A stretch of DNA of 64,000 nucleotides from Mobula hypostoma (Eukaryota): assembly GCF_963921235.1 (NCBI RefSeq), contig NC_086097.1, positions 160,644,001-160,708,000 on the forward strand, given 5' to 3'. The notes under the pieces were generated by a model. It worked only from the letters and a program-made list of their open reading frames with translations. It was not told the DNA's origin and did not search any database. Every line of letters starts with the position of its first letter. Position 1 is the first letter of the stretch. The position numbers and the translations under genes were made by a program. Of this stretch, positions 3,885-56,169 are shown piece after piece.

Positions 3885-4350
3885 TGTCAGTTATTTTCAA
3901 AATGGGGTGTGAATTCAAAAAAACGGAGGTGCAAACGAATATGAAGATTCATTTACAAAGATTTAGAATATTAAAAAAGATGTAATATTGAGGATTTATA
4001 AGCCATTGGTCAGACCACATTTGGAGTAGTGAGCAGTTTTGGGCGCTATATCTAAGAAAGGATGTATGGGAATGAAAGCGTTAATGTATGAGCAGCGTTT
4101 CGTGGGTCTGGGTCCATACATGCTGGAGTTTAGAAGAATGGTCTCATTAAAACCTATCAAATTTTGAACTGCCTGGATAGAGTATATGCGGGAAGGATGT
4201 CTCTAATAGTGGAAGAATCCCAGAACAAAGGACACAGCCTCAGAACATAAGGATGTCCCTTTAGAATACAGATGAGAAGAAATTTCTTTAGCCAGAGTAT
4301 GGTGTACCGTGGAATTCACTGCCACAGATGGCTGAAGATGACAAGTCATT
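3885..4350 (+). mobile_element. CR1 LINE ORF2 C-terminal fragment
   Basis: Encodes LRIYKPLVRPHLE, homologous to ORF 17357..17938; disrupted. Confidence 0.8.
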
Positions 4351-4412
4351 AGGTGTATTTTCCTGTAGCTTTGATCTCTTTTTCAGTCACTGACCTGGAA
4401 TGGAATGGAATG

Positions 4413-4534
4413 AATCCCTTACTCACTCTTCCTTCAGTTAGTCCTGACGAAGGGTCTCGGCCTGAAACGTCGACTGCACCTCTTCCTAGAGATGCTGCCT
4501 GGCCTGCTGCGTTCACCAGCAACTTTGATGTGTG
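4413..4534 (+). mobile_element. Young Penelope-like pseudo-LTR fragment
   Basis: Near-identical to 56010-56130. TSD TGACCTGGAATGG at 4391-4403 and 4535-4547. Confidence 0.85.
4440..4475 (+). ncRNA. Minimal type I hammerhead ribozyme motif (intact core)
   Basis: AGTC-CTGACGA-AGGGTCTCGGCCT-GAAA-C-GTC-GACT: CUGANGA and GAAA cores, stem II, stem I AGTC/GACT, GUC cleavage triplet. Confidence 0.75.
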
Positions 4535-4939
4535 TGACCTGGAATGGTAACTGTTTTCCTTCCCACAGATGCAGTCTAACCTCCTGAATATTTCCAGCAT
4601 TTTTGTTTGTGTATTAGTTCAATGAATAGCACCTCATTTTCCAGCTCACATTCCAGTCTTTGGGCTCAATTTGGATTTCAAGAATTCCAGTTAGAGATAC
4701 ATTTTTTAACTTGCATCAGAACAGGCTAATTCTGCTGCAGTCATCCAGCAGTTAATGCAGCATTGAGTTTTTTTTTTCCTCTCCCCCCACAGATGTTACA
4801 CAGCTCTTTCCTGCATTCTCTTTTGTTCCAGGTTTCCAGCAACCGCTATTCTGCATCTCAAATTTACAGCATGCTCTTTTGAATACACTTTTCACTCCAA
4901 TTGCCCTCCTTTATCTATTTATCATCTATTAATTAATCA

Positions 4940-5625
4940 TCCCCTTACAGTGTAAAAAGAGACCACCTGGCAGGGGCGCAAACAAGGCCGTCATTTTCAT
5001 CAAGGAGAAGGTCACGCCAGTCATATCAAAGAGGCCTAAATCCAGTCTGCTGCAAGCTGCCAAATCATTGGAGATGAGTGTCAATGCGGGGAGGAAGGTG
5101 CAGTTCCCGGAGGCAGTGCAAAACACACCAGCCAGACTGTGGACCACCAAAGACAAGGCCATCATCCTGCTGGAGCTCACAGTACCATGGGAGGAGGCTC
5201 AGATGTACCATTACTTAGTCCAGTAGTGCAGGAACAAAGGCTGTTCCCTTTGGAATGCCGACACAGCTATTCCTTGCTGTAGAGGGTTCCCAACAAGATC
5301 GGCCTGGAGGTTACTGCCTACGCCTGGTCTTGATGAAAAGAGCAAGCACCAAGCAGCTCGCAGGATGGGGGAGCTGAAAGAGCCTCTTGCTGGATATACA
5401 GCGGGAATGAGGAGTTGAGCTGGAAGTCAGGAGCAGATGGGCAGTGACTTGGCCGGTACTGCGGACCCGTCAAGTGGAGAGTGTAGTCGTTAAGGGCCGA
5501 AACACTCCATGAAGCTTGGGCACCACCTAACATCATCTGCTCCTGGCCAAAAGCTATGGTTTCCTCATCAGGTAACTGAAGAGAACACCCCAGTGTATGA
5601 TGCAAGTTGTTACACAGACAACCTT
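4940..5625 (+). mobile_element. HERO-like (R2 group) non-LTR retrotransposon 3' fragment, restriction-like endonuclease region
   Basis: Translates LWTTKDKAIILLELTVPWEEA, later CRGFP and ERASCWI-like blocks, typical of RLE-bearing non-LTR elements; disrupted. Confidence 0.7.
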
Positions 5626-7649: not shown

Positions 7650-9558
7650 GTGAGTGGCTGCTCCATTCCTTTGTGTGGCTCTCATGCTTTTAAATCTAAC
7701 GGAAGGTGTTTATTTCTTTGTCTACAAAGAGGAATCGTATATTATAGAAATGCCTGGCCTAATCTGTTTCTTGTTATCTATAACTTTAATACGTTTATGT
7801 ATACATTTACCCAGATTGAAGGGAAACACAAAGATTGTATGGCTCTCTGTACTCTCCAAATATTGCACTATGGTTATAAAGCTGCATCTTTCAAAATCAT
7901 CCATTTGGTCAGAGGATTTCTGTAAATCAAATTTTCTGGTGAATGTTTTCCTGTATGTTTGCTTTTGAATAATCACGTAATATCTTGTCATTTTCTGTTT
8001 AACTTGTGTATTTTTTGAACATTCCAAGCTTTAGGTGCTTATTTGCCTACTCAGATTTAGTTGAAGTTTGCAGTTTCAAAGTTTATGCAGTGGGTTGAAA
8101 AATTGCCACTGCCTGTGAATTATATTGATTTTATAGCATACATTTTAGATGTGAATGAAATGCATTTTGAATTGGATTTTTTTTTTGCTTTCCTTCAATC
8201 TATATACAACAAAATCATTTTCTCTTGTATTTTGTCTTGATAATGTGATATGTAGGTCACAGGTGGGTGTGCAGCAATTTCAGTGCTTCAATCTGTATTT
8301 ATGTTGAGTGATTGGGATACTAGATCTGCTGGCCTGATTTGGGATTGAATTGTTTTCCACGTGTTTTACCTTGAAACTTGCGTCAGACAGTTCCATTAAA
8401 TGTCCAAAATTTGCAACCTCAAATATTTTTTAAGAAGTGCATTTCATATTGCTTTTAAGAAGTTCTTCTTGTTTATATAAATTATAGTTCATTTTGACAA
8501 ACATTGGAAGAAAGTGAAGTTATTTCAAGATTTGTGGGATTATATATCTCAAACTTTGCCATTATGACAAAACTTGTAGTTTAAAATATAAAAACAATCA
8601 AATTTTAGATAGGTCAATAGATCATTGTACAGGCTTGTCAGTGAGTGCCTTATTAGAGTGAAATTGGCAGGGACCCTGGGAGAAGGTCACTTATTCACCC
8701 TCTGCGATGCAGAATTAAGTGCCAATTTTTGTTTTTACTTTGTGAGGGAAGAAGTGAAGTGTATTTATAGTAAAGCGAATTGTTGAAGTTGACTTCATCT
8801 ACTGTAGTGCAGTTTTGTGTTTATTATATTTGACCTACCAATTAGGGTTTGCTAGTAGCAAGAGAGCGGGAGGATGGCAGGGTTGCAGAAGAGGACTGAG
8901 ATGATCAAGGGTGAAAAAAATCAAGGGAAGGGTCAGTGGGAAGGGAATGAGGCACTGGTTGACTTAGATACCCTGTCTAGTGCAAGTTCAAAATAACGTG
9001 TGTATGTACACACATTAATTGCTGCTCTGAGTGAAAGTTGATTGGGAAAGGTTGAAATGAAAAGCAACATGTTCTTTATTGGGTGGCAGATCAGCAACTC
9101 ATCTTCTGTGATAAATGGATGCCTCCTGACCATCCAGTTCAATGTAACACGCAAACAGCGTACTACAGTTAATACCACACGTGGCTCAACTGTGGCTGGT
9201 ACTTGACTTTCCGCGGCAGGCTTCCACCTTGACCGGTGCTTCTCAGAGAGAGACAAGCTGACCCTCTGGGTAGCTTCAGTGCCAGAGTCAGCAAAGATTC
9301 TTTGCAACAGAAGCAACAGCAAGAGGGGAAAGGACAAGGCCAGTATCAGAATGTTTTAAATATGGTTTTGTGCTCAACTTTCTAATGAAATAGGTGTTGG
9401 TTATGACAAGACCTCATGGCAATACCCCTTTTCCATGAACTGGTACATATTAGATAAATTATCCAAGCAAGAAACTGCAAAATTATCTGTGTCCCCTTCT
9501 TAAAAACTGAACTGATTACAGCCCAAGTTATCTATTCCTTCCATTAGTCTGAACCTAA

Positions 9559-11685
9559 AACCATAAGACATAGGAGCAGAATTAGGCCATCTGGCCCATT
9601 GAGTCTGCTCTGCCATTTGATCATGGCTGATCCTTTTTTTCTATCTCCTCCTCAACCCCAGTTCCCAGCCTTCTCCCTGTAACCTTTGATGCCATGTCCA
9701 ATCAAGAACCTATCAATATCTGCCTTAAATACACCCAATGACCTGGCCTCCACAGCTGCATGTGGTGACCAAATTCCTCAAATTCACCACCCTTTAGCTA
9801 AAGAAATTTCTCCGCATCTGTTTTGAAAGGACGCTGCTCTATCCTGAGGCTGTGCCTTCTTTTCCTAGACTCTCCCATTATGGGAAACATTCTTTCCAGA
9901 TCTACTCTGTCGTCCAAAAGGCTTCAATAAAGCTCCCCCCCCCCCCACTCCATCCTTCTGAATTCCAGTGAGTATAGACACAGAGCCATCAAACGTTCCT
10001 CGTATGATAACCCTTTCATTCCTCGAATCCTCCTTATGAACCTTCTCTGGACCCTCTCCAATACCAGCACATCTTTTCAAAGGTGAGGGGCCCAAAATTG
10101 TTCACAATACTTAAGGTGCTAACATGGCATGTGCTGATTTGACCGGCAAGTTAACCTTTAGGGTATTCTGCACTTATCAGATTTTTGGATTTTCTCCCTG
10201 TTTAGAAAATAGCCTGCACCTTTATTTCTACTCTTAAAGTGCATGACCATGCATTTTCCAACATTGTATTTCATTTGCCACTTTCTTGCCCATTCTCCTA
10301 ATCAGTCTAAATCCTTCTGCATCCTACCTGTTTCCTCAACATTACCTGCCTCTCCACCAATCTTTGTATCATTTGCAAACTTGGCAACAAAGCCATCTAT
10401 TCCGTCATCTAAATTATTTATATACAGCATAAAAATAAGTGGTCCCAACACCGGCCCCTGCGGAACACCACTAGTCACCGGCAGCCAACCAGAAAAGGAT
10501 CCTTTTATTCCCACTGACTGCCTCCTACCAATCACCATGTTAGTAAAGTTCCTGTGATACCATGGGCTCTTAACTTGGTAAGCAGCCTCATGTGTGGCAC
10601 CTTGTCAAAGCCCTTTTGAGAGTCCTAATATACCATATCCACTGCATCCCCTTTATCTATCCTACTTGTAATCCCCTCAAAGAATTCCAGAAGGTTTGTC
10701 AGGCAGGATTTCCTTCTGACGGAAACCATGCTGACTTTGTCCTATCTTGTCCTGTATCACTAAGTTCTCCATCACCTCATCCTTAACAATTGACTCTAAC
10801 CCCTTCCCAACTGCGAAGGTCGGGCTAACTGGTCTATACTTTCCTCTCTGCTGCCTTCCTCCTTTTTTAAAGAGTGGAGTAACATTTGCAGTTTTCCAGT
10901 CCTCTGGCATCATGCCAGAGTCCAATAATTGTTTTGAAAGATCATTCCTAATGCCACCACAATCTCTAACGCTACCTCTTTCAAAACCCTAGGGTGCAGT
11001 TCAACTGGTCTACCTTTTCAGTCTTTTAGCTTTTTGAGCACCTCCTCTCTTGTAATAGTAACTGCACCCACTTCTCTTCCTTCACACACTACAACATCAG
11101 GCATACTGCTAGTGTCTTCCACAGTGAAGACTGATGCAAAATACCAATTTTTGTTCATCAGCATCTCCTTGTACCCCATTATTTTTTCTCCTGCCTCACT
11201 TTCTAGCAGTCCTATAGCCACTCTCATTTCTCCTTTATTTTTAACATTCTTGAAAAACTTTTACTATTCACTTTGGTATTAGTTATTAGCTTGCTTTCAT
11301 ATTTCATCTTTTCCCTTCTAGTGATTTTTTTAATGCTCTCTGTAGGTTATTTTAAAAGTTCCCAATCTTCCCATTAATTTTTGCTTTGTTGTATGCCCTT
11401 TCTTTTGCTTTTACAATAGCTTTGACTTGCATTGTCAGCCATGGTTGTACTATTTTTACCATTTGAGTATTTCTTTATTTTTGGAATACGCATGTCCGGC
11501 ACCTTCCTCATGTTTCTCAGAAACGCACACCATTGCTGCTCTGCTGACGTCTCTGCCAGCAGCTCCTTCCAATTTACTTTGGCCAACTCCTCTATCACAC
11601 CACTGTTATTTCCCTTACTCCACTGAAATACTGTTACATCAGACTTTACTTTCTCCCTATCAAAATTCAAGTTGAACATAATCCC
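9559..11685 (-). mobile_element. CR1 LINE, 5'-truncated ORF2 with 3' tail
   Basis: ORFs with PEDWKTANVTPLFKKG, SGVPQGPVLGPLIF and FANDTK; 3' UTR and tail near 9560. Confidence 0.92.
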
Positions 11686-12194: not shown

Positions 12195-13270
12195 TAGATT
12201 AATGTGCCATGGAACCAGGCACTTCAGCCTAATTCATCCATGCCAACTAAGATGCCAATCCAAGTGAGTCCCGTTTGTTCATGTTTGGCCCACATCCCTC
12301 CAAAGCCTCTACTACCATGTACCTGTCCAAGTGCCTTTTTAGCGTGGTTATTGTTGTAGTACCTGCATCAACCGCTTGTTCCATATGTGCACTACCTTTA
12401 TACAAACAGGTTGCTCCTAAGTTCCCTTTTGAATCTTTCTTCTCTAACCTTATAACTAAGCCCCCATGCTTTTTTTTAAGATTATGAGGACACGCAGTCC
12501 TCTTTTATTGTCATTTAGTAATGCATGCATTAAGAAATGATACAATATTCCTCTGATGTGATATCACGGAAACACAGGACAGACCAAGACTGAAAAACTA
12601 ACAAAAACCACATAATTATAACATATAGTTACAACAGTGCAACAATACCATAACTTGATGAAGAACAGGTCATGGCACAGTAATAAAAAAAGTTCAAAGT
12701 CTCTCGGAAGTCCCACATCTCATGCAGACGGGAGAAGGAAGAAAACTCTCCCTGCCGTGCCTGACCACAGTCCGACTTTGAGTCGTCCGAAAACTTCGAG
12801 CTCTGATCAGCCCTCCAACACCAAGTACCGAGCACCATCTCTGCCGAACGCTTCGACCTCAGCCTCAGTCGCCAGCAGCACGCAAAGCCGGGGATTATGG
12901 GGCCTTCCCTCCAGAGATTCTCAATCGCACAGTAACAGCGGCAGCGAACCGGGCATTTCAGAAATTTCTCCAGATGTTCCTCTGCTTCTCACGTCTGTCT
13001 CCATCAAATCAGAATTGTGCACGGCATCCTACTTAACAAATACGATATCATTTCGCTGGAGAGCTATGCGCGCTGCGCCACCAGCTTCTAATCCTATTTC
13101 TGGGGAAAAAGACTGGACCTTCACCTTACCTTCATGATTTTATACACCTTTTTAAGTTCTTTCCTCAATCTCCAATGCTCCAAGGGGAAAAACAAGTCCT
13201 AGCCTTCCTAACCTCTCCCTTATAACTCTGATGCTCAAGTACTAGCAATATTCTCATAAATCTTTGCACT
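12195..13270 (-). mobile_element. Old CR1 3' fragment split by a younger insertion
   Basis: Degenerate similarity to 52651-53100 on both sides of 12471-13078. Confidence 0.6.
12471..13078 (-). mobile_element. Young non-autonomous retroelement (probably Rex1/Babar-derived)
   Basis: CpG-rich 5' end starting TGGCGC; 3' end with AAATGACAATAAA resembling the Rex1 tails at 31.2 and 45.97 kb; interrupts CR1. Confidence 0.55.
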
Positions 13271-16261: not shown

Positions 16262-18182
16262 CACTAGCAGTATTGCAGGAGAATTACTAGCATGGATCGA
16301 GCAAATTGGCTGATTGGTAGGAGGCAGCGAGTGGGAATAAAAGGATCCTCTTCTGGTTGGCTGCCAGTGACTAGTGGTGTGCCACAGGGGTCAGTGTTGG
16401 GACCACTTCTTTTTATGCTGTATATCAATGATTTAGATGATGGAATACATGGCTTTGTTGCCAAGTTTGTGGATGATACAAAGATTGGTGAAGGGGGAGG
16501 TAGTGTTGAGGAAATGGGTAGGATGCAGAAGGATTTAGACAGATTAGGAGAATGGGCAAGAAAGGAAATACAATGTTGGAAAAGATAGATAGATAGATAT
16601 ACTTTATTAATCCCGAGGGAAATTTGGTTTCGTTACAGCCGCACCAACCAAGAATAAAGCGTAAATATAGCAATACAAAAAACCCCAACAATCAAACAAC
16701 AAAATGCAAACTATGCCACATGGAAAATAAGTCCAGGACCAGTCTATTGGCTCAGGGTGTCTGACCCTCCACGGGAGGAGCTGCACGTTCGATGGCCACA
16801 GGCAGGAACGTCCTCCCGTGCCGCCAGTGTTGTATCACGGTGGAATGTGGCCGAACTCCAACAGTAAAAAGTTCAGTATCCAGTCTGCAAACACACTCCT
16901 CGATTGTAATATACTCCAGATTGCACTATCCGTTGTTAACTGGATCAGTAAGCACGAAACTCCTTTACGCTTGCCGCTCTCGGTGCACTTCCGGTCAGCC
17001 GGAATGGTATTACCCACCGAACTTCTCTTATCCAAAAGTCTCTGTTGTCTCGACCCGGTCCTCTTTCCTCGGGTTTGTGATCCCCCTCTGTGAGTTTTCC
17101 TCCGGATTTCAGCAGGGGTGTCCACCGCTCTGTTAGCTAAGCCGGCTGGGATTTGCTGGTCCGTGAAATACACAATGTGACCTTGCTTCAGTCCTGCGTG
17201 TCGGGATGTAACCATTTCCAGCGCTAAAGAAAACCCAAATAAAACTCTCTCTACCAGCATGTTAGTGAGGGTGCAGCTTCGACGTGTTACCGTGAGAAAA
17301 AAAATACAAAAATAACATAAGTTTAAAAAGTAGGAAGAAGAAAGTAAAAGAATAGTTTGGAACGGCTGTACCAGGCTGCATGCACGACCGGCGCATGGTC
17401 ATGCATTTTGGTAGTAGAAATAAATGGGGAGAAAATCCAAAAATCTGAGGTGCAAAGGGACTTGGGAGTCCTTGTGCAGAACACCCTAAAGGTTAACTTG
17501 CAGGTGGAGTCGGTGGTGAGCAAGGCAAATGCCATGTTAGCATTCATTTCAGGAGATCTAGAATACAAGAGCAAGGATGTGATGCTGAGGCTTTACAAGG
17601 CACTGGTGAGGCCTCACCTTGAGTATTGTGAACAGTTTTGGGCCCCTCACTTTAGAGAACATGTACTGGCATTAGAAAGGGTCCAGAGAAGGTTTACAAG
17701 GATGATTCCAGGAATGAGAGGGTTATCATATGAGAAACGTGTGATGGCTCGGGGTCTGTACTCACTGGAATTCAGAAGGATGAGGGGGGATCTCATTGAA
17801 ACCTTTCGAATGTTGAAAGGCCTAGACAGAGTAGTTGTGGAAAGGATGTTTCTCATAGTGCGAGAGTCTAGGACAAGAGAGCACAGCCTCAGGATAGAGC
17901 GATACCCTTTCAAAATAGATGTGGAAAGATTTCTTTAGCCAAAGGGTGGTGAATTTGTGGAATTTGTTGCCACATGCATCTGTGGAGGCTAGGTCATTGG
18001 GCGTATTTAAGGCAGTGATTGATATGTTCTTGATTGGACATGGCATCAAAGGTTATGGGGAGAAGGCCAAAAACTGGGTTTGAGGAGGAGAAAAAAAGAA
18101 AGGGTCAGCCATGTTTGAATGGCGGAGCAGACTTAATGGATCAGATGACCTAATTCTGCTCCTATGTCTTATGGTCTTATGG
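16262..18182 (+). mobile_element. CR1 LINE RT and 3' end, interrupted at 16584-17393
   Basis: SGVPQGSVLGPLLF, FVDDTK and LYKALVRPHLEYC; tail CTATGTCTTATGGTCTTATGG. Confidence 0.92.
16584..17393 (-). mobile_element. Young non-autonomous retroelement with (TATC)n tail
   Basis: CpG-rich; minus-strand 3' end AATAAAGTATATCTATCTATCTATC. The CR1 sequence is continuous across it. Confidence 0.65.
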
Positions 18183-20121: not shown

Positions 20122-20466
20122 TCGCAAACAAGAGGAAATCTGCAAATGCTAGAAATCTGAGCAACACACAAGATGCTGGAGGAACTCAGCAGGCCCAGCA
20201 GCATCTAGGAAAAGTAGCAGCAGGGATCACAGAGGGGGAGCACTGAGAGGGTTTCACTGAACTCCCATCGAAGGGAAGATTTAAACTACCCTGAAGAAGT
20301 TTAAATCTTCCTTTCAGGATTTCAGTGAAATCCTCTCTCACTGCTCCCCCTCTGTGATCCCTGCTGCCTGTCCTGCCAAATGGTTTCAGCATGAAAAGTC
20401 GACTGTACCCTTTTCCTAGATGCTGCCCAGTCTCCTGAGTCCCTCGAGCATTTTGTGTTGTTACAG
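20122..20466. repeat. Fold-back insertion: inverted Penelope pseudo-LTR pieces around a 150-nt palindrome
   Basis: 20217-20242 is the exact reverse complement of 20342-20367. Outer arms 20163-20214 and 20410-20462. TSD TGATGGTTTGA at 20111-20121 and 20467-20477. Confidence 0.85.
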
Positions 20467-21714: not shown

Positions 21715-22156
21715 CATTGAACATTGACTTCTCTAACTTCCACTAATGCCCCACCTCCCCCTCGTACCCAATTCGTTATTTATTTATATACACACATTCT
21801 TTCTCTCTCTCTCTCTCTCCTTTTTCTCCCTCTGGCCCTCTGACTAGACCCCTTGCCCATCCTCTGGGCTTTCCCCCCCCCCCGCCTCCCCCTTTTCCTT
21901 CTCCCTGGGCCTCCAGTCCCATGATCCTCTCATATCTCTTTTGCCAATCACCTGTCCAGCTCTTGGGTCCATCCCTCCCATTCCTGTCTTCTCCTATCAT
22001 TTTGGATCTCCCCCTCCCCCTCCCACTTTCAAATCTCTTACTAGCTCTTCCTTCAGTTAGTCCTGACAAAGGGACTCGGCCCGAAACGTCGACTGTACCT
22101 CTTCCTAGAGATGCTGCCTGGCCTGCTGCGTTCACCAGCAACTTTGATGTGTGTTG
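21715..22156 (+). mobile_element. Penelope-like element 3' end with pseudo-LTR
   Basis: Homologous to 55720-56135. TSD CTCAAAATAAAAA at 21702-21714 and 22157-22169. Confidence 0.85.
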
Positions 22157-24130: not shown

Positions 24131-24386
24131 AACTGCTAGAAATCTCAGCGGGTTAAGACACATCTGGGGGAAGAGAAATGGCTAATGTTTCAGATTAAAG
24201 ACACTTCAGACTGGGAAGGAGACATTTGTAGGGTGGATGACAGGGTTTGGAAGTTCTTGCTCTAACCTATGAATCCATGGCTTCCTGTATTATTACAGTG
24301 AGGTAACCAAAACTGGCTTGAGAAATAACATTTTATCTTCTGCCTTTGCATGTTGTAGCCTTCCAGACTTAATATTGAATTTTACA

Positions 24387-26234
24387 GGCAACACACACAC
24401 AATGCTGGAGGAACTCAGCAGGCCAGGCAGCATCTAGGCGTAGAGTACAGTCAACCTATCGGGCCTAAACCCTTCAGCAGGATGAAGCAAAAAAGCTGAG
24501 AAGTAGATTTAAAAGGTGGGGCATTGAGAGACACAAGGTGATAGGTGAAACCTGAAGGAGGAGGGGATGAAGTAAAGAGCTGCGAAGTAAATTTGTAGAA
24601 GAGACAGAAGGCCATGGAAGAAAGAAAAGGAGCACCAAAGGGAGATGATGGGCAGGCAAGGAGATGAGATGAAGGAGGGAAAAGAGGATGGGAAATGGCA
24701 AAAGTGGGGGGGCGGGTGCGTTACTGGAAGTTGAAGGAATCAATATTCATGCTGTCAGGTTGGAGGCTACTCAAACGGAATATAAAGTGTTCTTCCTCCA
24801 GTCTAAGTGTGGCCTCATCACAACAGTGGAGAAGGCTATGGATATTTATATGGGAATGGGAAGTGGAATTAAAATGGGTGGCCAGTGAGAGATCCCACCC
24901 ACACCAGGAGCACTGGACACAGTATATGACCTCCAACAGACTCGCAGGTGAATTGTTGCCTCACCTGCAAGGACTTTTTAGGGCCCTGAATGGTAGTGAC
25001 GGAGGAGGTGTGGAGGCAGGTGTAGCACTTGTTCTGCTTGCAAGGATAAGTGCCAGGAGGGAAATCAGTGGGAGGGACAAATGGACAAGAGAGCTGAATA
25101 GGGAGCAATCTCTGTGAAAAGCAGAAAGTAGAAGGCAGGGAATAATGTGCTTGGTGGTGGGATCCTGTTGGAGATAGCAGAAATTTTGGAAAATTATGTG
25201 TTGGACATGGAGGCTGCTGTGGTGGCAGATGAGGACAGGAGGAACCCTCTCCCTGGTAGAGTGTTGGGAGGATGGGGTAAGAGCAGATGTGTGAAATGGA
25301 AGAGGTGCAATTGAGCACAGCATTGAAGGTGGAGGAAGGGAAACCTCTTTCTTTGGAAAAGAAGGACATCTCCTTTGTTCTAGAATGAAAAGCTTTATCC
25401 TGAAAGCAGATGAGGTGGAGGCAGAGGAATTGATAGAAGGGGCTGGCGTTTTACAAGTAACTGGGTGGGAGGAGGTATAGTCCAGGTAGCTGTAAGAGTC
25501 CATGGATTTATAATAGACATCAATGGATAAGCTGTCTCCGGAGACAGAGACAATGAGATTGAGAAAGGGGAGGGAGGTGTCAGAAATGGACCAGGTAAAT
25601 TTGAGGGCAGGGTGGAAGTTGGAGGTAAGTGGATGAAGTCAACGAGTTTAGTGTGGATGCAGGAAGCAGAACCAATACAATCATTGATGTAGTGTAGGAA
25701 AAGTGCAGAACAGTCACCAGTGTAGGCTGGGAATATAGACTGTTACATGTAGCTGACAAACAGGCAGGCATAGCTACGACCCATACAAGTGCCTATGGCT
25801 ACACCTTTTGTTTCAAGGAATGGGAAGAGTCAAAGGAGAAATTATTTACAGTGAGAACAAATTCTGCAAGGCAAAGGAGAATAGTAGTGGTGGTGGCGAA
25901 CTGGTTAGGTCTGGTGTCCAGAAAGAAACTGCGAACTTAGAGGCCTTCCTGGTGGGTGATGGAGGTGTATATAGGGACTGGACATCCATAGTAAAAATAA
26001 GATGATGTAGGCCAGGAAACTTGAAATCATTGAAAAGATTCAGAGTGTGTGAAGTGTGATGGATGTAGGTAGGAAGGGACTGAACAAGGTAGGATAAAAC
26101 AGAATCGAGGTATGCAAATGGGAGTTCAGTGGGGCAGAAACAAGGGGTCTACCTGGACAAGTGTGTTTGTGAATCTTGGGTAGGAGGTAGAAAAGGGAGG
26201 TGCAGCAGCATCTGCAGATTTTCTCTTGTTTGTG
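24387..26234 (-). mobile_element. Penelope-like retroelement (RT C-terminus, GIY-YIG region, pseudo-LTR)
   Basis: Minus-strand ORFs contain FYLLPKIHK..PGRPLVSA, YLDYTSSHPVTCK, PGTYPCKQNKCYTC and RLEEEHFIFRLSSLQPDSMNIDF. TSD ATTGAATTTTACA at 24374-24386 and 26235-26247. Confidence 0.9.
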
Positions 26235-31245: not shown

Positions 31246-31544
31246 AATGTAGAGTGAATTTGAGAGTAGAATGCAGAAGTGGTCAAATCGGATAACAAGA
31301 TAAATTAGAAAAACATGGAAAAAAGTACCAAAAATTAACATTTAAACCCGACTGCTAATGCTGGAATTTGGAATAAAGACAGAAATTCATTGTGTCAGGC
31401 AGCATCTGTGGAGGGAAATAGACAGTCGATGTTTCCTCTGGACTGAAAGTGTAGAGGGAGGTGGCAGGGTGAGGCAGAGCTGGCACCTGATGGGTGGATC
31501 CAGGTGAGGAGGGCTGATAGAGAAAGGAAGGGTGGAATTGTAGG

Positions 31545-39226: not shown

Positions 39227-40279
39227 GGCTACGTCCACACTGGACCAGATAATTTTGAAAATGCCGGTTTCGAGTAAAAACGACAGGCGCCCACACCAGG
39301 CGTTTTTCAAAATATCTCTGTCCTCATTAGATGAATATTTGGGCGAATCTCCTCCTACTGGGCATGCGCAGGACACAGAGAAAACTAGCGAAGAGGAAAC
39401 GGTATACTTGGTGCGCGTTTGTCCAGTTACAGAGCAGAAAAACTTCGAAGGAATTGCTCTTGGCTCTCGCGCAGGAGAACTTAAAACTTAAAAAAACCAC
39501 AAATACTGGAGCGTATGGGGGCAACCGATAGGGAGTTCACGGACAGTATGACCCGGCTGACAACGAACATTGAAAAACTGACCAACTCTGTTGCATTAAT
39601 AGAGTACCTTGTTAAATGTATAAAATGTGTCTGCATCAGTGTTATCCTGTATTTCCATACAATGTTACATTAGGCTGTTACACATCTATTGTCAGAGAAG
39701 TACTTGCATAAATAGGTAAACCTTCTTGGTTCTTGATCCTCCAAAATATTCCGCATGGAATTTAAACTGGAGGTGGAGGAGGGTGTTTTCTGTCCTTTCC
39801 TTCATACAAGCAAGGACAGAAAACAGGGCAAAGTGAGTATACTTATTTATTCAGTAAGTTATGGGTCAAAGTATTTGGTGAATACACTTCTAACTCTTCT
39901 GGCTTCAGTCCCGTTGCCATCTGTTCTAAAATTGTTAGGTTCTGCGAAGTGCAGAATCAAATATTGCTGTGATGATTGTACGCCCTAGTATCAATTGTTT
40001 GGTGACAATAAAATAATAATAATAAGAAGAAGAAAACAATGAAATGCCGCGCTGCCACCATCTGTTGCGGCACATCATGACAGCGGTTTTAAAAAGCTCC
40101 GTTTACGATGTCCACACTGCAATGGATATTAGGCGTTTTCAGATTTTTTCACTCTGGAGACCTTTTCTGAAAATCTTCATTTTCGGGGGATGAAAACGCC
40201 GCTTTAGTGTGGACAGAGGGTCAAAACGAAGAGAAAAAGCTTCGTTTACAAAATTATCCAGTGTAGTGTGGACGTAGCC
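39227..40279. mobile_element. PIF/Harbinger non-autonomous DNA transposon
   Basis: Perfect TIR GGCTACGTCCACACT / AGTGTGGACGTAGCC; 3-nt TNA-type flanks (TGA, TCA); internal CCACAC repeats. Confidence 0.8.
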
Positions 40280-40751
40280 TCAGTTACGACTGCAGCTCTT
40301 CACATCCTGTCACTTGCAAAGATGAAATTCTCTCAGTTCCTTTATCTCTGCTAGATCTGTTTTCATGATGTCTTCCATTTCAGGACATTTGAGATGTCCT
40401 TTTTATTTCAGAAAATATGGTTCCCCCTCACCACTGCTATCAATGCAGCCTTCACACCATTCCCCCACACCCCTGACATAACAGAAATAGAGTTCCTATT
40501 GTCCACACTCAGTACCCCACCCAATAAGTCTCCACATCTAACGTATTGTCTGCAACATCTCCATAGGGGTCCTACCCCAGTCACATTTTTCCCTTCCTTC
40601 ACCATCATTTTCTGCAAAGATTGCTCTTTCAATTATTCCATTCTGTTCATCCCTCCCTACCAATCCTTCTCCAGGAGATTGTCCCTGCAATTGTATTAAG
40701 TTTTATACCTGCCCTACATTACCACCATTCAGGGGCTTATGCGATCCATCA

Positions 40752-41562
40752 GGTCATAAGATATAGGAGCAGAATTAGGCTATTTAGCCCTTCAGGTCTG
40801 CTCCACCATTTCATCATGGCTGATACATTTTACCTGTCAGCCCCAATCTCCTGCCTTCCCTGCACACCCCCCTCCATATCCCTTCATGCCCTGACCAATC
40901 AAGAATCTATCAACTTCTGCCTTAAATATAAATAAAGACTTGGGCTCCACAACTGCCTGTGGCAAAGAATTCTGCAGATTTTCTTGCTAAAGAAATTCTT
41001 CCTCATCTCCGTACAGCAAGGGCACCCCTCTATATTGAGACTATGTCCTCTGGTCTTTGACACTCCCACAATAGGAAACATCCTCTCCACATCCACTCTA
41101 TCAAGACTTTTCACTATTCGATAGGTTTCAATTAGGTCACCCCTCATTCTTATGAATTCCAGTGAATACAGGCCCAGAGCCATCAAATGCTCTTCGTATG
41201 ACAATCCGTTCAATCCTGAAATCATTGTTGTGAACCTCCTTTGAATCCTCTCCAGTTTCAGCACATCCTTTCTAAGATATGGGGCCCAAACCTGCTCACA
41301 ATACTCCAAGTGAGGCCTCACCAGTGAGGACTTTAAAGTCTTAACATACCCTTGAATGCTAACATTGCATTTGCCTTCCTTGCTAAAGACTCGACCTTCA
41401 AATTAACCTTTAGGGGATCTTGCACAAGGACTCCCAAATCCCTTTGCACCTTAAATTTTTGTATTTTCTCACCATTTAGAAAATAGTCAACTCTTTTATT
41501 TCTTCTACCAAAGTGCATAACCATACACATCCCCAGAGGGTATCCTATCTGCCACTTCTTTG
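40752..41562 (-). mobile_element. CR1 3' fragment
   Basis: RPHLEYCEQVWAPYLRKDVLKLERIQRRFT plus 3' UTR. Confidence 0.9.
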
Positions 41563-43427
41563 TGTAGGTGAGGCACTCCTTCACATATAAATCCATCAGT
41601 ATCATTTATTGCATCTGATGCCACTTGTGCAGCCTATTCTGTAATGGTGGATTGCGGCTAGACACAGATTAGCAACACAGCACCTTGTATTCCACCTTGA
41701 TTAGTCTCCAACCTGACAGCATGAACATCGATTTCTCTAACTTCTGGTAAATATTCTCCTCTATTTACTCCCACCAGCCCCGCCCCCCCCATCCTTTGTT
41801 TTTTTTTCTTTATCCCACCAAACGCATCACTCCTTTCCCTCCCCCAACCTCTCGATCTGCCTATTACTCCCATATCCTTTTCTGAGGTTCCCCTCTTTAC
41901 CTTCTTTATTCCACAGTATTCTGTCCTCTCGTTTCGAATCCCATCTTCTTCAACTCTTTGTCAATTTCAGTTATCATTTCACAACTTTTTGCATCATTCC
42001 CACTTTCACCCACCTTTACATGCATATCTTTTCCTTAACTCAACTGGATTCACCTACCATGCAGCAGCCTTCAAGTTCCACGTTTCCCTCCCTCCCTTTT
42101 ATACTGGCTATCTCTCTTTTATGTCTAGATGACGAGTCTAGACCTGAAATGTTGACTATCCATTTTCCATCCATGAGTGCTGCCTGACCCGCTGAGTTTC
42201 TGCAGCATTTTGTGTGTATTGAGACAACACGCAACAGGAGGAAGCTGTTCCAGCCACACTCCCATGTTTGGGCCCAACAGCAGACAGAATTGAAGCTGAA
42301 GCATTTTGAGTGATGCTTCATTTGAACTTTTGAATGGATCTTCCATTGTAGCTTCATCTTGCAATCACTATCATTGTGAAAGTCCTGAATAAATTTAATA
42401 CACACATGGTAACGAGAAAACGGCTGAGAACACTGAATTTAGAAATATTTATGTACTCAACCTGCAATCAGACTTAAAATTATTCTTCTGTTCAGTGCCT
42501 CTGTGGCCACTTTTTATTAATTATTAACCAGAGAAATTCTGCAGGCGCTGGAAATTCAAGCAACACACACAAAATTCTGGAGGAATTACTCCTCATTTTT
42601 TTCTCCAGTCCCGATGAAGGATATTGGCCTGAAACATCAACTGTACTCTTTTCCACAGATGCTGCTTGATGCGCTGTGTTGCTTTTTTAATCATTTTGTG
42701 ACATATTGTATGATCAGCAAGGTCTGCATTGTTTCATGTCCCTCACTGGCCAAAGATAATGGTGAGCTCTCTTCATGACCTGCTATAGTTCTTCTGTTCA
42801 AGAACTCCCACATTTCTATGGTAAGTTCCAGGATTTGGACCCAGAGACACTAACCAGTGCTATATGTCGATAATGAGGATGGGCTGTACCTTTTAAGGGA
42901 AACCAGATGGTGGCATTTGCATGCTTTTATTCTTCATGGTAGCAAATTTAATGGTTTGGGAAGTGGCATCAGAGTAGTTTAGAAAGGTAACTGTAGTAGA
43001 TTTTGTAGATATTATGCTATGCAGCTACTGACCTGCTGGTGGTGGAGGGAATTAATGTTTATGGTAGTTGATGGGGTACCAGTCAAAGTGGGCTGCTTTA
43101 TCCTATATGTCGTTGAGCTTTCAGTTCTTAAAATTCATTCATACAAGCAAGTGGAGAGTTATCTATTGCACTCCTCACACGTTTATAGGTGGTGAAAATC
43201 ATTGGGGTATAAGAGGGTGAGAATATTTGTTCCCTAACTACAGGAAACTGATGGTACTGATCGCTACAATGGTAGTGCCATTGAATTTAAAGACTAATCA
43301 GACTTGGATCCTCCTGTTTTTTTTTTGGAGGTGTTCTTTGCCTGGAACTTTCGTGACAAGAATATTATTTGCCACTTCTCAGCCCATGCTTGGATGATGT
43401 ACATTTTTTGCTGCTTGAAGGTATACG

Positions 43428-51777: not shown

Positions 51778-51920
51778 TAAACAAGAGAAAATCTGCAGAT
51801 GCTGGAAATCCGAGTAACACACAAAACGCTGGAGGAACTCAGCAGGCCAGGCAGCATCTATGGGGGGAGAAAAGTACAGTCGCCGGGTTTTGGCCTGAAA
51901 TATCTACTGTACTTTTTTCC
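51778..51920. mobile_element. Small inverted Penelope pseudo-LTR insertion
   Basis: Minus-strand terminal piece followed by a plus-strand piece. TSD AAAGACCAGATTA at 51765-51777 and 51921-51933. Confidence 0.8.
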
Positions 51921-52650
51921 AAAGACCAGATTACATTTCTTTGAATTTTGTTTTGACATGCATGCACCTTTTGAATCCTGTCAGCTTTTATCTCTAGTTA
52001 AAAAATTAAAAATTATGTTACCTAAGTATATAAAAATAAATCACATTTAGTGGTTCTCTTGTCCTAAAATGCTAACTATAACAAAATAGATTTCCTGGTG
52101 TATTAATGGTAAATCAGTTCTGGATTGCAACCTAATACTTCGTATTCTAAGAAGAAAACATTGGAGTTCTAAATATGGTTAATGGAATTTGAAAGAAATT
52201 CATTAAGAATCACTCTGAGCTCCTTTTGGCTTCAGAATATACTATTTATGCAAGAATATACTTTTTATATACTTTTTATGCAAGGTCTCAAAACAAATAA
52301 CAAGCTTTGCACAGAATTACTGCTGAGGGACCAATGGGCTGATTTTAAAGGTAAACAACAGCATTGTAAATAAGTTGAACAACTGCTATATAACTTTTTT
52401 TTCAGCACTTGATTTTCTTTTTCTCATTTGTAAGCATTTTAAGTGCTTTTGTGATATTTCATAAAAAGATTCAGATCCCCAGCAGTTTAATTGGATCTTT
52501 GGCATTCAAGACCGGTGATCAAAACTATACAGAACTCCAGGTACGACCTACGGAAAGCTGTTTTGAGGGCAACAGTACAATTGAGATTGTGGTTAGGGAC
52601 AGAATTTGATGCATGTCAGCTCTGGCAGAATTTGCACCCCTTTACTTCCG

Positions 52651-53907
52651 TAGAACATAGAACATAGAATAGTACATCACAGTACAGGCCCTTCGGCCCA
52701 CAATGTTGTGCCGACCCTCAAAGCCTACCTCCCATATAAGCCCCCACCTTAGATTCCTCCATATACCTGTCTAGTAGTCTCTTAAACTTTACTAGTGTAT
52801 CTGCCTCCACCACTGACTCAGGCAGTGCATTCCACGCACCAACCACTCTCTGAGTAAAAAACCTTCCTCTAACATCCCCCTTGAACTTCCCACCCCTTAC
52901 CTTAAAGCCATGTCCTCTTGTATTGAGCAGTGGTGCCCTGGGGAAGAGGCGCTGGCTATCCACTCTATCTATTCCTCTTATTATCTTGTACACCTCTATC
53001 ATGTCTCCTCTCATCCTCCTTCTCTCCAAGGAGTAAAGCCCTAGCTCCCTTAATCTCTGATCATAATGCATACTTTCTAAACCAGGCAGCATCCTGGTAA
53101 ATCTCCTCTGTACCCTTTCCAATGCTTCCACATCCTTCCTATAGTGAGGTGACCAGAACTGAACACAATACTCCAAGTGTGGCCTAACCAGAGTTTTATA
53201 GAGCTGCATCATTATATCGCGACTCTTAAGCTCTATCCCTCGACTTATGAAAGCTAACACCCCATAAGCTTTCTTAACTACCCTATCCACCTGTGAGGCA
53301 ACTTTCAGGGATCTGTGGACATGTACGCCGAGATCCCTCTGCTCCTCCACACTACCAACTATCCTGCCATTTACTTTGTACTCTGCCTTGGAGTTTGTCC
53401 TTCAAGGTGTACCACCTCACACTTCTCTGGGTTGAACTCCATCTGCCACTTCTCAGCCCACTTCTGCATCCTATCAATGTCTCTCTGCAATCTTTGACAA
53501 TCCTCTACACTATCTACAACACCACCAACCATTGTGTCGTCTGTAAACTTGCCAACCCACCCTTCTACCCCCACATCCAGGTCGTTAATAAAAATCACGA
53601 AAAGTAGAGGTCCCAAAACAGATCCTTGTGGGACACCACTAGTCACAATCCTCCAATCTGAATGTACTCCCTCCACCACCACCCTCTGCCTTCTGCAGGC
53701 AAGCCAATTCTGAATCCACCTGGCCAAACTTCCCTGGATCCCATGCCTTCTAACTTTCTGAATAAGCCTACCATGTGGAACCTTGTCAAATGCCTTACTA
53801 AAATCCATATAGATCACATCCACTGCACTACCCTCATCTATCTGCCTGGTCACCTCCTCAAAGAACTCTATCAGGCTTGTTATCTGCCCTTCACAAAGCC
53901 ATGCTGA
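52651..53907 (-). mobile_element. Young 5'-truncated CR1 (RT core to 3' tail)
   Basis: ORFs 53371..53928 (YMDFSKAFDKVPH, GVPQGSVLGP, FTDDT) and 52718..53350; (TATGTTC)n tail. Confidence 0.95.
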
Positions 53908-55628
53908 CAAAGTGAATCCTAACATCATGAATTGCTGTGATGCTTCACTCCCAGATGAGCTTAAACATGCCTTTTATCCACATTCCGAAAGGGAGAATAA
54001 AACTACACCTGTGAATTTCTGCAGTATCTGGTGACCCCATGATCTGTTGTCTCGGAGGCCAACGTCAGAGCTTCTTTCAAGAGGGTGAACCCTTGCAAGG
54101 CATCGGACCCTGATGGTGTACCCGGTGAAGCTCTTAAAAACTTGTGCCAACCAATTGGTAAGAGTGTTCAAGGACATCAATCTCACATTGCTGTAGTCCA
54201 GGGGTAGGCAACCTACAGCCCACAGGCCAGATTCGGTCTACAAGCGATTTATTTATTTATTGATTGATTGATTGCTCCTTATTCTGAGTGTTTCACGCGA
54301 CCACACTGATGGACATGCATGGCGTCTTGTTACACTGGCCCCAGGTTCCGTTTTGTTCCAGCCCAAACACTGGTATATATGAATGACAGGATGGCAGACT
54401 ACCTTACTAATATGTATTAGATACTCTTCGTTTACGCACAGGTTTTCAGATGGGATCATTCAAATTTGTAAACAGAAACAGCGTCACTGTGTTTTAACAA
54501 GAAATCCATGCCAAATATTCAGATATTTACATGTGCTACGATACTTGTTGAATAACTCGCGTTTTGAAATAAAATCGAAGAAAAAAATTCCAATGGCAAT
54601 AAATGCAAAATGCGGGAATGTAGACACTGCGTGCCGAAATTTCCAAGACACTTGGACACTAGATTACTTCTTCATCAAGCAAGCTGGGAAACCAGTTTGT
54701 TTCATTTGCCTAGAAAATGTTGCTGTGAAGAAGGTGGCAAAATATCAGGCAACATTATGAGATCCGCCATAGTGGAAATTTTAACAAGTTTACTGGGCAA
54801 GCAAGGAAAGATGAAGTTGAGCGAATGAAGGATAGTTTCGGAAAACAAATGTCAATTTTTTGCCAAGAAAAGCAGTGAAGATGAAGGAAATACCCGTGCC
54901 AGCTAAGAAGTCTCAAAACGTATTGCAGAAAAGATGAAGCCTTTTACAGATGGAGAGTTTGTCAAAGAATGTTTACTGGCAGTGGTGGATATTGTTTGTC
55001 CTGAAAAGAAATTTTTATAGTCCAAGAATTGAGAAAAAAGTTTTCATCTCGTTTTGCTGATTTTCACTTGCATGCAAATGAATTCAAGCTGTTTGCTACT
55101 CCATTTGATGTGGAAGTGGACACTGCATCAGAAATTTTTCAAATGCAATTGATTGAGACGCAGTGTGACGACATATTGAGATCGAAATATCTTCTGAGGA
55201 TGTGTCAGTGCTTGACTTCTATAGAAAATATATTCATCCAAGTGGGAAGTATCCTAACTTAGTGGACCATGCAAAAAAGATGGCATCATTGTTTGGCAGC
55301 ACTTAACTGTGTGAACAATTATTTTCAAAAATGAAGCACACCATTTGAGAACAAGATTGACCGATGCCCATCTGGATAATGTCTTGCTCTTGGCATCAAC
55401 AAGTCTGACACCCAATATTGAGAAGCTTTCAAGCAATAAACCGCATCAAGTTTCACATTGATTTATCGACTGTTTGCATTAAAATTTTCTTCTTTATTAT
55501 ACTTAATTTACCACCATTCAATGCGTCATGTTCATACTTTTTATGTTTGAAGATTCTTTGTGTCCTCTTAATAGGTTCAAAAGATGCCTTGATTGAAATA
55601 AATTGCAACTAAACCGAGTTCTTTGATT

Positions 55629-56169
55629 CTTCATCTCCTCTACTGTAGAGATGAAGCCACACTCAGGTTGGAGGAACAACACCTTATATTCCGTCTGGGT
55701 AGCCTCCAACCTGATGGCATGAACATCGACCTCTAACTTCCGCTAAGGCCCCACCTCCCCCTCGTACCCCATCTGTTACTCATTTTTATGCACACATTCT
55801 TTCTCTCACCTTTTTCTCCCTCTGTCCCTCTGAATATACCTCTTGCCCATCCTCTGGGTCACCCCCCCCTTGTCTTTCTTCCCGGACCTCCTGTCCCATG
55901 ATCCTCTTGTATCCCCTTTTGCCTATCACCTGTCCAGCTCTCGGCTCTATCCCTCCCCCTCCTGTCTTCTCCTATCATTTTGGATCTCCCCCTCCCCCTC
56001 CAACTTTCAAATCCCTTACTCACTCTTCCTTCAGTTAGTCCTGACGAAGGGTCTCGGCCTGAAACGTCGACTGCACCTCTTCCTATAGATGCTGCTTGGC
56101 CTGCTGCGTTCACCAGCAACTTTGATGTATGTTGCTTGAATTTCCAGCATCTGCAGAATTCCTGTTGTT
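55629..56169 (+). mobile_element. Young Penelope-like 3' end with pseudo-LTR
   Basis: DEATLRLEEQHLIFRLGSLQPDGMNID; TSD TTCTTTGATT at 55619-55628 and 56170-56179. Confidence 0.9.
56037..56072 (+). ncRNA. Minimal type I hammerhead ribozyme motif (intact core)
   Basis: The 36-mer is identical to 4440-4475. Confidence 0.75.

Follow-up and report, generated by a model that had tools for sequence, protein, structure and literature searches.

The window, that is, the whole 64,000 nt stretch of Mobula hypostoma DNA which we have analyzed, contains at 4440-4475 of the forward strand a sequence with the layout of a minimal type I hammerhead ribozyme. The explanation which best accounts for our results, with a probability of roughly 0.85, is that this layout belongs to the 123 bp 3' end of a Penelope-like element, likely of the Neptune type, which is nested in an older member of its own family. 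The parent element would probably cleave as a dimer or with the help of its protein, and the lone copy is probably inert.

The 36 nt motif is found by its sequence, by a descriptor and by a covariance model. Stem I would be formed by 4 bp (4440-4443 with 4472-4475). It is followed by the CUGACGA box (4444-4450) and by an unpaired A (4451), which directly precedes stem II. The latter also has 4 bp (4452-4455 with 4460-4463: G.U, G-C, G-C, U.G), with a 4 nt loop (4456-4459). The GAAA box (4464-4467) comes next, then C4468, G4469, U4470 and C4471, and the layout of the motif places the predicted cleavage point at 4471/4472. An earlier note on this DNA had described both boxes, stems I and II, the GUC site and a predicted cut after 4471, exactly as they are found in the sequence. 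It also proposed a stem III reduced to a single C-G pair. Such a hairpin cannot form, since nothing separates C4468 from G4469. The motif has no helix III; in its place there is an ACGU palindrome (4467-4470) which can only pair with a second motif, in a dimer. The position numbers used here (G8, G10.1, C15.2, G16.2 and others) follow hammerhead numbering as applied to the ray motif.

Minimal hammerheads have been described in the pseudo-LTRs (pLTRs) of metazoan Penelope-like elements, including the fish elements Xena, Poseidon and Neptune (Cervera & De la Pena 2014, PMC4209133). As in those motifs, CUGANGA and GAAA boxes are present together with a UH cleavage triplet, helix I is short, and helix III is missing, positions 15.1-16.1 being palindromic (the ACGU at 4467-4470). 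Positions 9 and 10.1 are also separated by an unpaired base, as in those motifs, and the same A is found in all 14 of the other motifs we have aligned, gap placement aside. The copies are likewise mostly single and dispersed, derived from truncated elements. Unlike the Schistosoma motifs, which have a helix II of 7-8 bp (PMC4209133), the ray motif has one of 4 bp. The closing pair of helix II, 10.1-11.1, is G.U in the 4440-4475 copy, unlike the motifs described in that paper, and G-C in the copy at 22063. It is paired in all 15 aligned motifs (12 G-C, 3 G.U), and a T4463C variant (23% of the summed depth for run X1, 74% for run X11) replaces the G.U by G-C and leaves stem II intact. Judged by its sequence, the candidate motif has every feature we have examined for the minimal hammerheads of Penelope-like elements, with the exception of the G.U at 10.1-11.1.

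The motif is not expected by chance. A 28 nt core with up to three mismatches is found three times in the window and never in 100 shuffles, and the full descriptor of minimal hammerheads gives two matches, whereas 150 random windows of 64 kb have none. Taken by themselves, the two boxes are not above chance (14 matches in the window, 8.1 +/- 4.4 expected), and the folding energy of the motif is ordinary (z -0.37). The exact 34 nt pattern has no match in viral contigs and none in metagenome contigs. The earlier note held that standard annotation would overlook the motif, and this is the case: Rfam gives no hammerhead in the whole window at the gathering threshold, and there is none among the eight matches obtained in 4200-4800 with E up to 10. 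The scan with Rfam Hammerhead_1 which the note itself proposed as a check does not detect the motif when it is run, because the Rfam models miss it.

We have built an independent covariance model from 11 motifs of metagenome loci, with no sequence of the window included. It ranks the three young copies of the window first, followed by two old ones, and scores 36.2 bits at 4438-4477 (E 1.6e-8, a rough value). Out of 141 confirmed loci which code for proteins related to that of the element, the best 80 make up our metagenome set. A strict descriptor has nine matches in these 80 loci, where 20 mononucleotide shuffles give 0 on average. Of the 26 loci which extend 300 nt or more beyond the end of the endonuclease, 5 have a match. 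A relaxed pattern, used without a shuffle control, is found in 20 of 27 loci, 19 of them at 90-168 nt past the endonuclease end.

Covariation of stems I and II had also been suggested as a check. It fails among the 14 copies of the window taken alone (0.206, versus 0.241 when shuffled), a small and decayed sample, and it holds across related families. In an alignment of 15 motifs, four from the window and 11 from metagenomes, chosen to span the types of stem, 84% of the cells pair and both sides change in seven of the eight pairs, which amounts to compensatory changes of helices I and II between families. The covariation is 0.686, versus 0.298 +/- 0.041 in shuffles, none of which (0 of 500) is as high, and the best slid control gives 0.161; these values are inflated, the sequences being related and chosen by their core.

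Our results support the placement of the motif, by sequence comparison, in the pLTR or 3' end of a Penelope-like element, as the earlier note had claimed. Sister copies run on into sequence coding for a reverse transcriptase (RT) and a GIY-YIG endonuclease, and in a sister copy with 97.6% identity the motif is about 295 nt downstream of the end of the endonuclease coding region, on the same (sense) strand. The RT followed by a C-terminal GIY-YIG with internal cysteines is found in sister copies and is absent from the 123 bp copy. The description of the repeat as SINE-like is not supported, as the staggered 5' ends continue into the coding region. The motif thus lies in the end of a retrotransposon, since the longer sister copies put it past a GIY-YIG/RT frame of the Neptune type.

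The peptide encoded by 55602-55733 has 91% identity with a Mobula hypostoma protein (P0001), which carries an RT thumb, a C-x4-C-x2-C linker and a GIY-YIG domain. The GIY-YIG scores 20.9 bits, below the Pfam cut-off of 22.6, and none of 12 window fragments has a match in Pfam. P0001 maps back to copies in the window (tblastn 5e-75), and together with its full-length relatives (about 800 aa) it maps to an old frameshifted copy (24724-26228, reverse strand) and to several fragments. We have found 85 longer relatives, most of them with the RT family PF00078, and an IY..C..C..YIG pattern in 73 of the 85.

A C-x2-5-C-x2-C linker is present in the window (24872-25450, reverse strand) and in P0001, and its cysteines are invariant in all 20 aligned sequences. 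Such a motif between RT and endonuclease marks Neptune or Nematis and is absent from Penelope and Poseidon (PMC8557442), and vertebrates are reported to hold Neptune and Poseidon (bioRxiv 10.64898/2026.07.22.740005). The element is therefore likely to belong to the Neptune clade, a placement suggested by the linker motif and not by a phylogeny which includes named references. Features in common with the Neptune elements described in PMC8557442 are the internal cysteines of the C-terminal GIY-YIG, the linker, the likely target-site duplications of variable length, the optional tail and the inverted, 5'-truncated partners. Unlike the Neptune references, the ray family has no full-length copy in the window, and the linker is shared with Nematis.

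The family is very abundant. An iterated profile finds 22 pieces of it in the 64-kb window, and the summed contig depth over the motif in run X1 is about 5e6, versus 5-7 on unique flank; this is not a copy number, and it shows how abundant the family is. A metagenome contig (L013, 260-3406) has a long intact Neptune-like ORF. The hammerhead is found at the 5' end of this ORF, and the core box includes an ATG in frame with it, a layout similar to the one in anole.

The copy which carries the motif is a 5'-truncated and tail-less 3' end of a young element, 123 bp long (4413-4535, forward strand), delimited by alignment, its base 4535 being common to the flanking repeat. It has 97.6% identity with 56010-56132 and 94.3% with 22032-22154. 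It is flanked by a 13 bp direct repeat, likely a target-site duplication (4391-4403 on the left, 4535-4547 on the right, both on the forward strand). Nine additional bases at the 5' junction (4404-4412) lengthen a GGAAT-type micro-repeat, and one contig of organism B has one further 5-base unit at this junction.

The flanks on both sides belong to a decayed, older member of the family, in the same orientation: its upstream part at 4375-4403, with most of the hammerhead core gone, and its downstream part at 4536-4612 (nhmmer E 1.3e-14). An empty site reconstructed in silico aligns to five of six old family copies better than the best of 200 shuffles, and the target therefore appears to be the decayed hammerhead region of the older copy. 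Penelope-like elements are known to insert into or beside pre-existing copies (PMC6765202). The joint of the empty site is not among the contig joints listed. A contig of organism B covering 4512-4850 enters the element by only 24 letters, below our bridging rule of 31, and is only a hint that this organism shares the insertion.

Two other young copies are found on the forward strand. One of them (55629-56169) codes for the C-terminus of the endonuclease up to about 55746, followed by the pLTR and by a tail of about 33 nt. It has the identical 36 nt motif at 56037-56072 and a 10 bp flanking repeat (55619-55628/56170-56179). The other (21715-22156) has a change of G8 to A in the core (the box at 22063) and a 13 bp flanking repeat (21702-21714/22157-22169). 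Flanking repeats of 10-13 bp are present in all three young copies, as in elements with target-site duplications of variable length. The 3' ends of the copies form two classes which differ by about 33 nt and lie either +63 to +69 or +94 to +101 nt past the cut site, in agreement with an optional tail of 30-40 bp. The 4413-4535 copy contains the cut site plus 59 nt upstream of it, which makes an uncut or re-ligated RNA the likely template.

The old frameshifted copy on the reverse strand (24385-26228) has RT motifs, the C-x4-C-x2-C linker and a GIY-YIG end, and its hammerhead, at 24447-24486, is decayed. One old inverted copy begins about 4 nt from the cut site, which is not significant. We have also observed three inverted pairs of truncated family copies (20126-20460, 42526-42700 and 51779-51925), an arrangement typical of Penelope; the last pair is surrounded by a 13 bp direct repeat, and it is here that the inverted partner begins about 4 nt from the predicted cut. 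In two old copies of the reverse strand (20126-20220 and 31381-31447), the whole hammerhead or stem II appears, by eye, to be deleted internally, which could be due to the RT jumping over the stem-loop.

Inserted copies decay like neutral DNA. Only 2 of the 16 motif positions which we have checked retain both boxes. In run X1 (DNA), CpG changes at C15.2 and G16.2 of the core (4468/4469) amount to 7.3% and 8.8%, those at 4471/4472 to 6.0% and 7.8%, and those in loop 2 to 7.3% and 10.0%. The core CpGs of the family decay like those of the loop, as expected for neutral decay; G8 is not among the variants listed.

Folding predictions, made with nearest-neighbour models which take no account of the catalytic core, do not favour the active fold. 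On its own, the 36-mer is predicted to fold into stems I and II, yet also into a helix which occupies the core, and in longer contexts other folds are mostly preferred. In the 4413-4535 copy the predicted probability of the hammerhead stems is 0.0, and with 60 nt of upstream sequence it is 0.76 for stem II and 0.11 for stem I. A dimer with two hammerheads has -9.5 kcal/mol versus an optimum of -28.3, that is, it is about 19 kcal/mol higher. This fits the low activity of minimal hammerheads, with no cleavage of monomers and weak cleavage of Schistosoma dimers (PMC4209133), and the dependence of the anole motif on protein (PMC11167929). We also considered, as a conserved switch, an upstream hairpin (4425-4455) which would hide the CUGA box, and rejected it: It depends on the window used for folding and is not common to other families.

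Run X10, made of contigs presumed to come from RNA, covers the repeat and does not cover the unique flanks. It shows neither a step at 4471/4472 nor an accumulation of ends, though contigs cannot show ends or levels. No pile of 5' ends at 4472 is found among the loose ends listed. Just past the motif, at 4478-4492, many copies have a tract of pyrimidines and then AG and ATG, which looks like a splice acceptor; position 4489 varies among young copies. Downstream of this tract the presumed RNA run is about 2.6-fold richer than the DNA, although contig depth cannot rank parts.

A possible sequence of events may be proposed. Following the literature, the active element would be transcribed through a partial tandem. 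Two motifs might then share an ACGU/ACGU helix III, with the strands of stem I swapped, and be cut after the C equivalent to 4471; alternatively, the protein of the element could refold the motif for cleavage. The GIY-YIG nuclease would nick the target DNA, and the RT would start about 63-69 or 94-101 nt past the cut site, as the two classes of 3' ends suggest. In the case of 4413-4535, it would have read back through the cut site, probably on uncut or re-ligated RNA, and halted about 59 nt upstream, and the 13 bp direct repeat would have been left by this insertion. Decay would follow, with the neutral pattern described for the family.

An unlikely alternative is that the motif has been kept for a role other than cleavage; it might, for example, serve the protein of the element as a signal for binding, for folding or for the start of translation, cleavage being marginal even in the active element. 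Every intact copy spans the cut site, which points to uncut RNA as template, and the active fold is disfavoured in silico. In anole, hammerhead mutants had no effect on insertion in vitro and no RNA-seq reads start or stop at the site (PMC11167929), and in L013 the ATG inside the core is in frame with the long ORF. On the other hand, the catalytic positions are constant across families while the stems covary, the anole motif was cleaved when the protein was present, with a C3G/G8C rescue that worked (PMC11167929), and Schistosoma dimers were cleaved, if weakly (PMC4209133).

It is improbable that the 4440-4475 copy is itself an active ribozyme which cuts its host transcript, be it alone, with its old neighbour or in trans. 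Its motif is intact, the same 36 nt are found in two independent insertions, and the extreme abundance of the family would provide plenty of partners in trans. However, helix III is absent, and the old neighbouring copy cannot act as a partner in a dimer, as it has lost the palindrome and the first box. The decay of the core CpGs across the family looks neutral, and the likeness of the young copies is explained by their age (97.6% identity). We regard as a distant prospect a wider version, in which abundant, young and identical hammerheads would cut transcripts in trans through ACGU and a swapped stem I, forming a genome-wide network, and in which self-targeting would seed units with two ribozymes and finally retrozymes.

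It is very doubtful that the repeat is a SINE or a unit of a tandem non-LTR retrozyme, independent of a coding element. There are many short copies (the 22 profile matches in 64 kb), and some contigs have joints leading from 4513-4535 back to 4437-4444, which hints at short units repeated head to tail in other parts of related genomes. Nevertheless, the continuous alignment to the coding region, with staggered 5' ends that run into endonuclease and RT, has largely refuted this idea already, and the locus has no tandem array and a single intact motif. Finally, a chance likeness to a hammerhead, which would suit the count of the boxes alone, the lack of a match in Rfam and the folding z of -0.37, is already refuted by the descriptor (0 in 150 random windows), the independent model (E about 1e-8) and the covariation across families.

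The motif is outside the Rfam hammerhead families, and it is neither a tandem retrozyme nor a SINE. A close counterpart is the anole element PAc (Poseidon; Frangieh et al. 2024, PMC11167929), which also has the motif in its pLTR, copies derived from uncut RNA and two classes of 3' ends, 30-40 nt apart, with two RT start sites. Insertion of PAc into its own pLTR has been proposed, and the ray copy is nested in a copy of its own family. In contrast to PAc, the ray family has the linker motif, similar to a zinc finger, of the Neptune type, which is absent from Poseidon, and we see no conserved ORF start at stem II in the ray copies.

Non-LTR retrozymes carry a type I motif derived from the pLTR of Penelope-like elements and have been reported in one chondrichthyan genome (bioRxiv 10.64898/2026.07.22.740005). 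They need at least two tandem units with complete motifs, while the ray locus has one intact motif, no array and a decayed neighbour. Head-to-tail units of about 75-100 nt which include the hammerhead, possibly retrozyme-like tandems, are observed in contigs of organisms A and B.

The arrangement itself was already described in 2014 for fish Neptune and Poseidon elements (PMC4209133). We have found no description naming the hammerhead of the ray family in the parts of the literature accessible to our search, and the supplements of PMC4209133 may already list it. The 4440-4475 copy brings no new mechanism. Its interest lies in the presence in rays of a very abundant family of the Penelope type whose minimal hammerhead is invisible to Rfam, which matters for annotation. 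The family is also young and nearly identical, with two clean classes of 3' ends, and provides convenient material for the study of the role of the ribozyme in the Penelope cycle.

With respect to the rest of the window, a search of 12622-13134 in Atlas returned nothing, and no host exon was identified. We have considered and rejected a host gene at a match to MFSD8, as it only covers the atypical 78 C-terminal residues of a Mobula isoform, with stops, and the MFS part has no match. Within an annotated Mobula birostris MFSD8 isoform, the region in question, 39336-39570, corresponds only to the atypical C-terminal exon (83-87%), with stops, and is likely a repeat absorbed into the MFSD8 gene model. 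In 4933-5250 there is a fragment which resembles the end of a non-LTR element coding for a restriction-like endonuclease. Many decayed LINE fragments, presumably CR1-like from their appearance, are found at 4004-4360, 9556-10988, 16264-18182, 40746-41605 and 52718-53973.
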